This document shows, one piece after another, positions 16,631-47,898 of a stretch of DNA of 64,000 nucleotides (position 1 is the first letter of the stretch; each line of letters begins with the position of its first letter). The notes beneath the pieces were generated by a model. That model had not been told where the DNA came from. It worked only from the letters and a program-made list of their open reading frames with translations, and did no database searches. Position numbers and translations under genes: made by a program. The DNA is taken from assembly GCA_964016885.1 (NCBI GenBank), contig OZ024746.1, positions 12,400,001-12,464,000 on the forward strand, read 5' to 3'. The stretch is from Eledone cirrhosa (Eukaryota).

Positions 16631-19603
16631 CTGTTAGATTGTATCTTAATTTCTCGACAATAGAAGATATAAAATATGAATATCTGTTGCATAATGTTTC
16701 TATGTTGTAAGCGACAATATAAAATAACGACAAATAAAAACAATTGAACATAAAATAAAATATAAACACTTTATTGTTTCAATAAAATATACAAATATAT
16801 ATAAAATATGTAATATAAATAAAATTAATTATACAAATATTTTTAATATAGATATATTTATATATGTCACAGATATAATATTGTAATACCAACAACATTC
16901 TTGCGATATGACATTAAATATAATTATTACTTATAATATCAAAATATATTGTTTTCTATGTTAAAGAAAAATATTCTTTGTGAAAAGTGAAGTTTAAACG
17001 CTTCTACATATCTGCAATGATACACTTGTATCTGGGTACCTGCCTGATTGGTAGGGATTCATGAAATGTGATTGAATATCATTTCATTGAAATGATTGAA
17101 GAGTATGTTGAATATACACTATATGTTCCAGGAGTGAATGAAGTGTAACCATGGTAAATGTTCGATGTTGACCAATGTGTAATTGATTTGGCAGCAAAAT
17201 ATTACCATCTGATTCTACATTGTGTCGGAACTTTGAAGACATCTGAAATATAAGAAAACATTGATAAAAGCTTGGTGAAAATATTTACAAATTGTAATAT
17301 ATAGACACTTAGATATTATATTGTAATATATAGACACTTAGATATTATATTGTAATATATAGACACTTACATATTATATGTAATATATAGACACTTACAT
17401 ATATAGATTAGGTTTGGCGTTGATGTGTTGTATATATTATCAAATTATTGTTGCTCCTCATTGTTAAAATTTCACAATATTTTTCTAGATAATTTATATT
17501 AAATATCTCATCTATTCATATGCAAACTATGATTGTTTAAAATTACATTACACAGGTAGACAATATAGAAATTATTTGAAAATATCCTAGGATTGTTTAA
17601 AATTACTTCATTAAACAGAACTTTATTTCATATTAACACCAACAGAGACAATATAGAATCTATTTGGAAATATTCTTAGAGTAATAATACTTACAAATAA
17701 ATTCAGTAGAATTTTCATATCAACCAAATGATAATGAGTTCGTTTGAGATAGCAAAAGAACATAGCAACTGATGTTCGAGTGAGTTTAGAACAAGCAGCT
17801 GGATAATGACATGGCACATTTATAAGTTTGGCAGGAGCACACAGTCTGTCATATTCTCTCTTCGTTTCATTCTTGATCACATCGATATATTTACTGAGTG
17901 TTGTAGACATGTTAACTAACAGCATCTGTAATGAAGAAATGTGACGAGTCTTATATTTTCTCATTTATTCACACCTCTATCATAAACTTCAAAAATATTG
18001 AGAGAGGAAAATATTTTCATAATGTGTACAAACCTTTGTTAATTCAGTCCGAGTGTTGGTGCTGTTGTCCTGAATGTACATCTGAGGGAATTTAACATCC
18101 ATATTGTTGACTGTCTTATCAATAAATTGATGGCAGCTTGTAGCAGGTTCTAATTCAATGTCCTTACACTATATAAAAATAATATTACATCATATGTGTC
18201 AGACTTTGATAGAAAGAATTGGAATAAAATGAGACATATATGCTTGAGAACTGAATTATTCTGTACTATGCTCTTTGATTTCATTCAGATATTCTTCATG
18301 AAATCAGGTTGCTATGTGATATTGCAATACTATAGACATAAAAATATGATACTGATATATGAAAAACAATAAGGAATTAATTCTTAACTTACATATATGC
18401 TCAAAGTATTATTTACAGATTTTGATGCGAGTCCTGTAATGTACAATACATCCTGCAAGTTAGATTTTATTTCTGATAATGCAGGCGTGACAGTAGATAT
18501 CGATGCTCCAGCTATTAATGTAATCCATACTGACAGACATACGAATGATGTAAATTTCCAACCTAAATAAGAAAATAAAAGTTGTATGTAAATATGTATG
18601 TATGTGTGTATGTGTGTATGTGTGTATGTGTGTGTGTGTGTGTGTGCGTGCGTGCGTGCGTGCGTGCGTGCGTGCGTGTGCGTGTGTGTGTGTATGTATG
18701 TATGTATGTGTGTATGTATGTATGTGTGTATGTATGTATGTATGTATGTATGTGTGTATGTATGTGTGTATGTGTGTATGTATGTGTGTATGTGTGTATG
18801 TATGTGTGTATGTGTGTATGTATGTGTGTATGTGTGTATGTATGTGTGTATGTGTGTATGTATGTATGTATGTATGTATGTGTGTATGTATGTATGTATG
18901 TATGTATGTATGTATGTGTGTATGTATGTATGTATGTATGTGTGTATGTATGTATGTATGTATGTATGTACGTATTGATAATTCAAATAATAATATTTAT
19001 GTGAACTCTACAGAACTTCATACTTACAAGTGTTCATTTTTGTTGTAACTGATTGAAAAATAGTAATGTAAATTATAAAATAGCGATAACTTTATAGACC
19101 TTGTGAACGCAGAAATTATGACAAAATATATCTAATGACAACCCTTATATACTTACTCAGAGAATAATTAGTTTGTAAATTCCCTTGATAAGTTTCGGTA
19201 ATGTAAGTATCTGGAAATTAACTATATCCTTTATCTAATGTGTCATTTACGATACGTAAACTTTGTTTTCCGTAGTACCGGCGGATGATTTGTTTTTCTC
19301 ATTGTGTGATTAACTGTGGGAGAATTTGTGAAAGGGAGAGAAAAGTGTGTAAAAAGACAGATAGAGGAAAAGACAGGGAAAGAGGGAGAACGTAAAAGCA
19401 CTTTATGAATGAACTATTTTTATCACAATATTGATAGTAAATTCCTTCCTGTTTATGTGTGATAATAAAAGTTCCGACTGAATTATTATTTCATAGTAGA
19501 GAGAGGTCATCATCATCGTCCTTCAAGTTACTAGTGGATACTTTACCTGTTAGGAATAGCAGCCATTTCTTCCTCAAATCATACCTTACCAGATATTATA
19601 GAT
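16631..19603 (-). repeat. Left arm of a ~3-kb inverted segmental duplication (contains gene A)
   Basis: Near-identical reverse complement of 28136-31446, including introns, UTRs and upstream region. Differences are mostly microsatellite/minisatellite length. Confidence 0.92.
17084..19037 (-). CDS. Gene A: secreted 234-aa putative four-helix-bundle (class I cytokine-like) protein, 5 coding exons
   Basis: Coding exons on minus strand: 19037-19028 (ATG AAC ACT T|gtaagt), 18562-18393, 18168-18034, 17925-17695, 17242-17084 (TGA). All introns are GT-AG, phases 1,0,0,0, and the spliced frame is open: MNTCWKFTSFVCLSVWITLIAGASISTVTPALSEIKSNLQDVLYITGLASKSVNNTLSIY/CKDIELEPATSCHQFIDKTVNNMDVKFPQMYIQDNSTNTRTELTK/MLLVNMSTTLSKYIDVIKNETKREYDRLCAPAKLINVPCHYPAACSKLTRTSVAMFFCYLKRTHYHLVDMKILLNLF/MSSKFRHNVESDGNILLPNQLHIGQHRTFTMVTLHSLLEHIVYIQHTLQSFQ*. 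The exon structure is supported by paralog C. The family assignment is inference. Confidence 0.85.
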
Positions 19604-45900: not shown

Positions 45901-47898
45901 ACACAAACACTAGTCATACAATTAAATGGTGGCCCAGCCAAGCTGTTAAGTGACTGTATCACATTACATAATCCTAGTTTTGTTGGAAGTTATTATCATT
46001 AAGAATGTGGTGTCATTGAAAACTGAGATATTGGATTCATCTTTAACCACTTTCTTAAGGAATAAATCTTATCAATTCCTCCCTTACACAAGAGCCATCC
46101 TATATCGAAGCTGTCAAATATGCCGTGATATGAAAGAGAAAATATTTCTGATTGGAAAATATTGAAGTATTTATGAAAACCTACCTCTAAATGATTATAA
46201 ATGCTGGAATTCAAATTGTCGCTTTGGTATAGTTTTGGAAAGGTGGAATCCATTGATTTGATTACGTATTTTATAAAACCTTTACAATCATATGAAGGAG
46301 GGTATAAATCGCTGGTACACTAAAAAAAAATGCAAATATAATTATTATTATATAATCTTAATTACATTATAAGGAAAAACGTCTTAAATAGTTAAGCGAA
46401 AGTAGAAATCGGCTAGGCGTATTTATTATTTTTCCTTTAAATAATTAGAAATTAGGAAGAAATATTTCGGAAGAATTTTTATAAGAGTTTTTCTGAAGAT
46501 ATAATTACTGATTTCTAATTTTCGCACAATAATTGAAATCAATAAGCTAGAACCTCATAGAGTGTAGGATATGGCGGCAGAGCAACGAAAAACGACGTTG
46601 GGGGTATTTGAACTCAGAACATGACATAACTAAATACTGTAAAGTCCAACATTTGACATTTTTGCCAACTTTCCGCTCTTCTAAATCAGTGATTTCTGAC
46701 AATGACAAAGAAAATATGAATCTGAATCGGCTCTCAGTATATTACTGGTAATTGGCCTATCAACCACAACAATATCACTGACATGTGACTGATATATCAA
46801 CAACAGAGAGATTACTGACTGTTGATGACTGAGTCAAATCCGGTGAGATTTGTAATCAGAAAATAAAGGAACGAAACTAAATAGCAAAAGTCATTTTATC
46901 TGTCACTCTGCCGTTTTTGACAATCCATTGATCTCCCGTCACTAAAATAATTATTACTTACATAATGCTTCAGTGTGTAGTTAACACAGGATTTTGAAGT
47001 AGAAGAGATACTTCGCGCCATCTGGAACTCAACTGAATAATTGTATGACATTTCAGTTGTAAGCGGTGCTCCAAGAATCGGTAAAATACCACAGCACAGC
47101 ATTACGACAGCAACAAGGAAATGGCAACCTAGAATAATACAAACAAAAATTATACTAAGATCATTGTATATATATATATATATGTGTGTGTGTGTGTGTG
47201 TGTGTGTGTGTGTGTGTGTGTGTGTGTGTGTGTGTTTATGTATGTAAAAAGGCTTCATATGTGACATTTTTTGCGATGCGTGGTATTGCTGGCCACAGGC
47301 AAGTCCCTAGCAGGAGTAAAAAGCCTCGTCCGTGATGCTCATGCTTAAATATCAAGCGATGGCATCACTCGTAATCGAGTTGCAGCCATCATCATCAAGT
47401 ATATATATACACATGATGTATGTATATATATATATATATATATATATATATATATATATATATATATATATATATATATATATATATATATATATATATA
47501 TATATATATGCCAGTATCAGCAATTGAAAGACCAATGGAAACGTTGTTTCTTTGGTTCAATTTTACACGATCGGCTCTTTTCCTTTTGACGATTTTAAGT
47601 CTTTTAAGTTTAGACATATGTATATATATATATATATATATATATATATATATATATATATATATATATATATATATATATTAAATATATATATTAAATA
47701 TATATTAAATATATATATTAAATATATATATATTATATATATATATATATATATGTGTGTGTGTGTGTGTGTGTGAACGCGTTTGAGTGTGTACATTCAG
47801 GGAGTGTGTAGGTAGTCGGGGAGAAACCAAACAAATATAATAATCATTTGCTGAGATTATGTAAAATCTGCTGAAGCCGTAAAACTGATCTTACCCAT
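42921..47898 (-). CDS. Gene C: divergent paralog, secreted 233-aa cytokine-like protein, 5 coding exons
   Basis: Coding exons on minus strand: 47898-47895 (ATG G|gtaag), 47128-46962, 46319-46185, 45239-45009, 43085-42921 (TAA); GT-AG, phases 1,0,0,0. [233 protein letters not shown]. Exons 3 and 4 are 135 and 231 nt, exactly as in A/B. Hand count gives 60/174 identities, ungapped, over exons 3-5. Confidence 0.87.
43320..43833 (+). mobile_element. RTE LINE 3' fragment with (GAA)n tail, antisense in intron 4 of gene C
   Basis: [36 protein letters not shown]...RPRGRP; tail (AAG)n at 43751-43833. Confidence 0.85.
44380..44806. repeat. Two fold-back palindromes of the same family in intron 4 of gene C
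   Basis: Hairpin at ~44385-44485 and a near-perfect ~209-bp palindrome at 44598-44806, flanked by (TA)n. Confidence 0.85.

Follow-up and report, generated by a model that had tools for sequence, protein, structure and literature searches.

Known helical cytokine systems and the Eledone cirrhosa genes

The described systems closest to the genes reported here are the long-chain helical cytokines and hormones of vertebrates, with which we compare three five-exon genes, designated A, B and C, in a 64,000-nucleotide stretch of the Eledone cirrhosa genome (contig OZ024746.1, positions 12,400,001 to 12,464,000; the window). The vertebrate IL-6 gene has a five-exon layout (PMC13081863, PMC3271213), IL-6 orthologues adjoin TOMM7 (PMC13081863), and IL-6 proteins carry the signature Cx9Cx6GLx2Yx3F with a four-cysteine configuration (PMC3271213, Table 2); the lamprey IL-6 search used precursor length (about 150-280 amino acids), a signal peptide, a four-helix model and structural similarity (PMC13081863). 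GH and prolactin family genes have five to six exons (PMC9546618), and interferons and other class II cytokines have five helices and intron phases 0-0-0-0 (10.64898/2026.05.30.728932). Among invertebrates, Drosophila Unpaired 1-3 are ligands of the gp130-like receptor Domeless (PMC13203501), a lancelet GH-like protein is a further precedent (PMC9546618), and an oyster IL-12 p35 homolog is in print (Xin et al. 2021, PMID 34051203, in the references of PMC12122919); PMC13524488 contributes no further precedent. A 2026 survey reports IL6R, JAK and STAT from molluscs but no canonical IL-6 ligand, and asks for ligand-receptor tests (PMC13203501).

All three window genes are open from ATG to stop in models built from the genomic sequence, with GT-AG ends at 12 of 12 introns and phases 1-0-0-0 in each gene, so that the rebuilt models bear out the three intact spliced frames of 234, 234 and 233 amino acids, each with a tiny first exon, that had been proposed from the sequence alone (the original prediction).

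19037-17084 (-), gene A: 234 amino acids, coding exons 10/170/135/231/159 nucleotides
19028..19037 (-), gene A coding exon 1: 10 nucleotides, then a phase-1 intron
18393..18562 (-), gene A exon 2: signal peptide and helix A
18034..18168 (-), gene A exon 3: AB loop, C-x10-C, short helix
17695..17925 (-), gene A exon 4: helix B, four-cysteine BC region, helix C
17084..17242 (-), gene A exon 5: CD loop, helix D, stop
28805-30975 (+), gene B: 234 amino acids, coding exons 10/170/135/231/159 nucleotides
28805..28814 (+), gene B coding exon 1: 10 nucleotides
29381..29550 (+), gene B exon 2: signal peptide (about residues 1-23), helix A (residues 32-63)
29775..29909 (+), gene B exon 3: AB loop, Cys61/Cys72, short helix 72-83, conserved F-P-x-[LM]
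30018..30248 (+), gene B exon 4: helix B (101-139), Cys134/144/150/163, helix C (157-179)
30817..30975 (+), gene B exon 5: CD loop, helix D (205-233), stop
47898-42921 (-), gene C: 233 amino acids, coding exons 4/167/135/231/165 nucleotides
47895..47898 (-), gene C coding exon 1: 4 nucleotides
46962..47128 (-), gene C exon 2: signal peptide and helix A
46185..46319 (-), gene C exon 3: AB loop, Cys58/Cys69
45009..45239 (-), gene C exon 4: helices B and C, Cys131/141/147/160
42921..43085 (-), gene C exon 5: CD loop, R-W-F motif, helix D, stop

Hydropathy peaks at residues 7-21 (2.07 in B and 2.62 in C, with later sampled windows at or below 1.53 and hence no further membrane-spanning segment) agree with the hydrophobic signal peptides predicted earlier; these are called by hydropathy only with the cleavage site judged by eye, and cleavage after residue 22-23 would leave a mature protein of about 24 kDa. 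Six cysteines align between B (61, 72, 134, 144, 150, 163) and C (58, 69, 131, 141, 147, 160), and each of A, B and C has four N-glycosylation sequons, NNT/NYT and NMS/NIT among them. Together with the R-x-F-[ST]-MVTLH motif and the equal lengths of exons 3 and 4 in all three genes (135 and 231 nucleotides), these features are present as claimed. Paralog identity needed correction from about 34%, since A and B are 31-32% identical to C over the global alignment (74-75 of 236 columns) and 233 of 234 residues identical to each other; the B-C alignment scores 321.5, compared with a maximum of 40 among 500 shuffles. A and B, whose coding sequences differ at two nucleotides and one amino acid, arose by a recent inverted duplication, which reduces the number of distinct proteins encoded in the window from three to two. 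The proposed cluster of three genes thus stands as three intact loci, but with two distinct proteins, and is a small part of a family of 39 copies. Judged from their reading frames, A, B and C are real, intact genes for predicted secreted proteins.

Predicted fold and likeness to known families

The fold was computed with AlphaFold2, from a 16-row alignment, on the Octopus sinensis protein P0003, which stands in for the window proteins and shares 113 of 230 residues with B (49%), with four gap columns and all six cysteines aligned. In the best model (predicted local distance difference test, pLDDT, 83.0, five models ranging over 73.8-83.0; predicted template modelling score, pTM, 0.77), a signal helix at residues 3-20 precedes long helices at 32-59, 97-135, 153-175 and 201-229 and short helices at 61-79 and 144-147, giving a long-chain four-helix bundle with the long AB and CD loops and short BC link of an up-up-down-down topology. 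When this model was compared with 48,161 solved chains by VIA-align, IL-11 was the best match (Z 15.3, root-mean-square deviation (rmsd) 2.9, 156 residues aligned), next came CLCF1 (14.9), LIF (14.5), IL-6 (14.5), CNTF (13.7), IL-27 (13.1) and the cytokine/receptor entry 1i1r (13.1), further down placental lactogen (13.0), OSM (12.8), IL-23 (12.5) and IL-12 (12.1), and lower still GH (10.5), the best interferon (10.3), leptin (10.1) and IL-34 (8.2). Every one of the 26 rows at Z of at least 8 was a helical cytokine or hormone, the first non-cytokine having Z 7.6; the eight rows at Z of at least 13 belong to one superfamily, and the matches cover 140-164 residues spread over the whole mature chain. 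Foldseek listed 21 rows down to rank 22, all class I cytokines, with G-CSF first (probability 1.00, target-normalized template modelling (TM) score 0.74-0.79). The ESM Atlas, which compares sequence features rather than models, listed ten clusters for P0003, nine of which carry IL6, Hormone_1, IL12, LIF_OSM, IL11 or GCSF (scores 0.90-0.93).

Mapped onto B and C, the predicted helices fall into the exon slots that had been proposed, with 29 of the 32 residues of helix A in exon 2, and the AB loop in exon 3; exon 4 holds 34 of the 39 residues of helix B together with helix C, and exon 5 holds helix D. Prolines in the mapped chains occur only within loops and at the end of helix B. The vertebrate long-chain genes have the same full 1-0-0-0 string and the same helix-to-exon slots. 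The Eledone genes thus combine five exons, a first intron in the signal region, phases 1-0-0-0 and the slots A, AB loop, B plus C and D in exons 2, 3, 4 and 5, and all four features of the lamprey search are found in the family: precursors of 234, 234 and 233 amino acids, a signal peptide and, on P0003 only, the four-helix model and the structural similarity.

Given the predicted fold, the family is most probably a cephalopod branch of its own within the long-chain class I superfamily; for subtype C the putative cytokine assignment draws on alignment. From the cytokine fold of P0003 we infer a role as receptor ligands, and by analogy signalling through a class I receptor is quite likely. Our preferred interpretation as a whole, which we hold to be probable, is that these are secreted, N-glycosylated long-chain class I cytokines of cephalopods, kin at the level of the superfamily to IL-6, IL-11, LIF, G-CSF and GH, signalling via a class I receptor. 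The original prediction had reached much the same view and is supported overall: structure prediction and Foldseek, two of the checks it had named, gave a long-chain class I four-helix bundle for P0003, and neither by sequence nor by fold was there a match to a known venom or structural protein. Its claim of novelty holds for cephalopods within the reach of our searches and fails for molluscs, where the oyster IL-12 p35 homolog and a mostly molluscan Atlas cluster (114 members, about 229 amino acids, 11% with Pfam IL6; score 0.93 to P0003) stand beside the family. What is new is the cephalopod branch, previously unannotated; a molluscan class I-type cytokine was already known from oyster.

A number of results weigh against this interpretation. 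The modelled fold is that of a single relative from a 16-row alignment rather than of the window's own proteins, helical bundles can reach a Z of about 13 in the aligner by arrangement without kinship, Foldseek gave no expectation value (E) of 0.001 or below (best 0.051), and sequence identity to the structural matches is 7-17%; in the ESM Atlas, shuffled proteins reach 0.9 in 4-10 of 100 cases. Pfam had no match for eight exons or 13 relatives, and PDB sequences had none with exon-4 or full-length profiles. ATTTA showed no excess in the 3′ regions over resampled sequence and no NF-kB-like site was present in the 1-kb upstream regions, so that, with neither an AU-rich nor an NF-kB signal, the DNA offers no pointer to immune induction. 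Finally, thirty near-identical intact copies of one subtype, described below, would be a dosage more typical of bulk secretions than of signalling ligands.

Additional searches with exon 4 against longer proteins (by word index) and, on its own, against the ESM Atlas had no match; the viral fold library had nothing at E of 0.001 or below, and Pfam IL6 had zero matches across the whole genome. The lack of a sequence-level link to any cytokine and the non-significant Foldseek values would be expected if the four-helix bundle were convergent or mis-predicted and the 1-0-0-0 layout coincidental, signal-peptide introns being often phase 1 and phase 0 being the commonest. We regard such convergence as highly improbable, since structure search, language-model features and the exon-to-helix mapping agree on one superfamily, with matches spanning 140-164 residues and a best non-cytokine Z of 7.6 against 15.3.

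Within the superfamily, the proteins resemble the vertebrate IL-6/gp130 family (IL-27p28, IL-23p19 and IL-12p35 included) and G-CSF in their predicted long-chain four-helix fold (Z 12.1-15.3, rmsd 2.6-4.0), size, signal peptide and cysteine pair at the start of the AB loop; the genes share the five exons, of whose introns the first interrupts the signal region and the other three the domain. They differ from the IL-6/gp130 family in sequence, with 8-17% identity, and in a four-cysteine cluster at the B-C turn, a 39-residue helix B, a 12-residue helix in the AB loop and the presence of 39 copies in arrays. Orthology to IL-6 itself was rejected: the C-x9-C is placed at the B-C turn and continues as x5-C, GL being absent, there are six cysteines, and PF00489 has no match. 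Synteny gave no support for IL-6 orthology either, the single Tom7 match being on contig C11 and the family copies on contigs C6 and C4.

C11:31,983,945-31,984,025, Tom7 exon, sole match in the genome

GH and prolactin have a very short first coding exon and a C-terminal disulfide. The likeness here is one of predicted fold (Z 10.5-13.0 for the group of GH, prolactin and placental lactogen), exon number and the very short first coding exon, whereas the Z values are lower than for the IL-6 family, Pfam Hormone_1 had no match among 13 relatives and eight exons, and exon 5 has no cysteine; membership of that family was rejected. An endocrine or trophic hormone with the same fold and receptor class, serving growth, maturation, brooding or nerve regeneration, is in our view unlikely: IL-6-family structures outrank the hormones in VIA-align, the C-terminal disulfide of GH and prolactin has no counterpart in exon 5, and the mechanism would overlap that of a cytokine, with physiology alone differing. 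In its favor are the Z values of placental lactogen (13.0), GH (10.5), leptin (10.1) and CNTF (13.7), the Hormone_1 clusters at 0.92 in the ESM Atlas, the missing AU-rich and NF-kB signals, and the five-to-six-exon layout common to GH and prolactin (PMC9546618). An interferon or other class II identity was also rejected, as the phases here are 1-0-0-0 and the best interferon has a Z of 10.3 compared with 15.3 for IL-11. The oyster IL-12 p35 homolog is likewise molluscan and, by the title of its report, likewise placed among the long-chain class I proteins; no bivalve or gastropod is among the named profile matches, so any kinship with the oyster protein or the molluscan Atlas cluster lies beyond sequence detection. 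Drosophila Unpaired is likened by role only, its receptor class being named from the literature. The top Atlas neighbour of P0003 is a mainly arthropod cluster (score 0.93; 56 members of about 230 amino acids, without Pfam assignment), which may lead to more class I cytokines of invertebrates that have so far escaped recognition.

Family expansion and cephalopod relatives

Searching the 3.0-Gb assembly with exon 4 (49 candidates scored, 40 matches) gave 39 exon-4 copies at E of 6e-15 or below, and the same 39 were recovered with exon 4 of C. Left out of the count were a match with one stop at C19:23.87 Mb (E 0.016) and another match at C21:9.70 Mb (E 0.4). The copies form five subtypes, with 3 in the window, 31 of subtype D, 4 of E and 1 of F, and all 39 lie on C6, the contig of the window, or C4.

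C6:26,453,825-26,848,568, subtype D array: 31 tandem copies over 395 kb (L003-L020, L027-L036, L038-L045)
C4:128.16-128.23 Mb, subtype E: four copies (L021-L024) about 20 kb apart, exons 2-5 open, same phases
C6:10.51 Mb, subtype F: one gene (L025), exons 2-5 located, same exon layout

Nei-Gojobori ratios of nonsynonymous to synonymous substitution (dN/dS) were 0.22-0.64 in 10 of 10 pairs among B, C, D, E and F, with dS near saturation for pairs involving C, which demonstrates purifying selection on the spliced frame, as had been suggested from the equal exon lengths. The D array has a median spacing of 12.1 kb and whole units that are 96-99% alike, and exons 2-5 are open with AG/GT ends in 30 of the 31 copies. 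Its members differ on average by 1% of nucleotides, and exons 3-5 comprise 25 nucleotide and 12 protein variants; 25 haplotypes at this mean difference argue that the array is real and recent. One copy (L027) lacks exons 2-3 and the acceptor, and another (L030) has Tyr at a conserved cysteine. An inverted 49-nucleotide exon-2 fragment is present in units L027 and L030-L034 (for example L034:618-666), a trace of the inversions that left three D copies on the opposite strand.

Such an array, with 30 copies intact over exons 2-5 and a mean nucleotide difference of 1%, is equally what might be seen if the cytokine fold had been co-opted as a bulk secretion of saliva, mucus, egg coat or skin, the arrays providing dosage and JAK/STAT signalling having, for the amplified subtypes at least, been lost or become secondary. 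O. vulgaris has tandem copies of its own, visible as the chimeric models P0001 and P0024, which point the same way, and four sequons with probably three disulfides would suit a harsh extracellular setting. We nonetheless judge this improbable, since no known venom or structural protein was matched by sequence or fold and vertebrate cytokines and hormones have arrays too, among them the type I interferons, primate GH and rodent prolactins. For the cytokine interpretation, an inducible immune or wound signal is the best fit to repeated lineage-specific amplification (the A/B pair and the arrays of 4 and 31 copies) alongside an older C-type lineage, and the 31-copy array would display selection or drift on cytokine dosage at a scale that automated annotation garbles.

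In other cephalopods, a HMMER search of 1.84 billion representatives with the exon-4 profile returned 20 proteins at E of 0.001 or below, of which 19 are relatives; the remaining one (P0019, 892 amino acids, repeat-rich) was rejected as a chance match. The 13 named relatives are all "uncharacterized" or "hypothetical" and come from Octopus sinensis, O. vulgaris, O. bimaculoides, Argonauta hians and Acanthosepion pharaonis, and no bivalve, gastropod or insect protein was among the named matches of the profile searches. A literature search of main texts, thin on subscription journals, turned up neither a mention of six LOC identifiers of the relatives nor a publication on class I cytokines in cephalopods. 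Independently made public models run colinear, end to end, with those of the window, P0003 being 48-49% identical to B and P0006 39% identical to C. In a tree of 25 rows over exons 3-5, C falls together with an Argonauta gene and LOC115212847 of O. sinensis (94/88, not starred), and A/B, D and an O. sinensis/vulgaris tandem group occupy separate clades, which suggests an older C-type lineage plus repeated lineage-specific amplification. The exon-3 F-P-x-[LM] is conserved in the family, and at the R-W-F that starts helix D, 12 of 15 rows have R and 10 of 15 have W, with Thr instead of Trp in A/B.

Among models P0001, P0024, P0027 and P0009, those of O. vulgaris fuse exon 4 to exon 3 of the next copy or read through an intron, and one from Argonauta is without exon 3. 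As these models break at the phase-0 boundaries seen here, intron positions are conserved and annotation garbles the arrays. With this family one can ask whether the five-exon plan of IL-6 and GH genes is older than the protostome-deuterostome split; should its introns coincide in position with those of IL-6, IL-11 and GH, the gene plan of the vertebrate long-chain cytokines would be of bilaterian age. A broader proposal, which we advance only tentatively and would not yet favor over its negation, is that these are unrecognised cephalopod ligands of a gp130/Domeless-JAK-STAT pathway, that a five-exon IL-6/GH-type gene, as the common 1-0-0-0 exon-helix layout would imply, was present in the last protostome-deuterostome ancestor, and that octopods later multiplied the family several times independently, here into the 31-copy array of near-identical genes, which would serve as an interferon-like, dosage-scaled immune or regeneration signal.

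Receptor side, flanking signals and surrounding DNA

Long-chain class I bundles use their helix faces to engage the cytokine receptor homology (CHR) modules of their receptors; a gp130-type Ig domain is recruited by a third site, where helix D begins, and JAKs are thereby brought together for STAT phosphorylation. By this scheme, cleavage of a signal peptide of about 22-23 residues would leave a 24-kDa bundle of up-up-down-down topology, in which one disulfide probably staples the start of the AB loop and two would form in the family-specific four-cysteine cluster at the B-C turn. The ligand would then, in the manner of its structural relatives, cross-link a gp130/Domeless-type receptor through its helix A/C and A/D faces, with the R-W-F at the start of helix D as a candidate third receptor site, and receptor cross-linking would activate JAK and, in turn, the STAT of this genome, for which the N-domain exon was located over the Pfam cut-off.

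C8:40,247,688-40,247,909, STAT N-domain exon (STAT_int)

Receptor profiles gave little: against the genome, IL6Ra-bind had zero matches, EpoR_lig-bind had one with three stops and below the cut-off, and fn3 had 150, mostly in one giant gene on contig C10, with no true WSxWS in 10 other stretches. STAT_bind likewise had zero matches, and as STAT_int is present, these searches are insensitive and the receptor blanks uninformative. The failure to find a gp130/Domeless-type receptor with such profiles, together with IL-34 at Z 8.2, would fit a helical cytokine acting on a receptor without JAK coupling (a receptor tyrosine kinase, as for IL-34/CSF-1, or CRLF3). There is very little chance of this, in our estimation, given the long-chain geometry (helices of 23-39 residues), the far higher Z of gp130-family ligands and the insensitivity of the receptor searches, STAT_bind having failed in a STAT-bearing genome. 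As probable class I cytokines, the family members supply concrete, expressible ligand candidates for molluscan JAK/STAT signalling and make the missing-ligand question testable in animals studied for regeneration, immunity and senescence.

Candidate promoter elements, each a consensus match only, and candidate polyadenylation signals were located next to all three genes.

28746..28751 (+), TATA-like box of B, 59 nucleotides before the ATG
19096-19091 (-), TATA-like box of A, same site as in B
48086..48092 (-), TATA-like box of C, 194 nucleotides before the ATG
31284..31289 (+), candidate polyadenylation signal of B, 309 nucleotides after the stop, same offset in A
42535..42540 (-), candidate polyadenylation signal of C, 381 nucleotides after the stop

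STAT, AP-1 and cAMP response element (CRE) motifs, sought by consensus, showed nothing convincing in the gene flanks. Three sequencing runs of unstated kind gave a single contig of 1.2 kb, unspliced, which spans exons 2-4 and has the B-type letter at five of five A/B differences; as such contigs collapse variants, it neither confirms nor rejects copy A. Two Logan proteins, P0020 (from a 1,457-nucleotide contig) and P0012 (2,835 nucleotides), span exon boundaries, from which we infer that spliced transcripts exist in relatives of the family. A third, P0015, appears to read out of exon 4 into the intron.

Genes A and B lie in the arms of an inverted duplication of about 3 kb, with five substitutions over a 1226-nucleotide core and differing microsatellite content in intron 1.

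~16659..19520 (-), inverted-duplication arm 1: gene A with proximal promoter and 3′ flank
~28335..31400 (+), inverted-duplication arm 2: gene B

Between the arms is a long interspersed nuclear element (LINE) with a 942-codon reverse-transcriptase frame at 20504-23332 (+) (RVT_1, E 3e-27), and a relative of this element with 76% identity occupies about 57099-58640 (-). A fragmented, Helitron-like PIF1 helicase sits immediately downstream of gene A, at 14819-16200 (+), with a second copy, 89% identical, about 5 kb upstream of the first (about 9873-10690). Intron 4 of C contains nested inverted repeats (44367-44849) that include a 259-nucleotide palindrome at 44573-44831; the repeat is a small dispersed element resembling a miniature inverted-repeat transposable element (MITE), with further copies at about 40540-40780 and 62800-63006.

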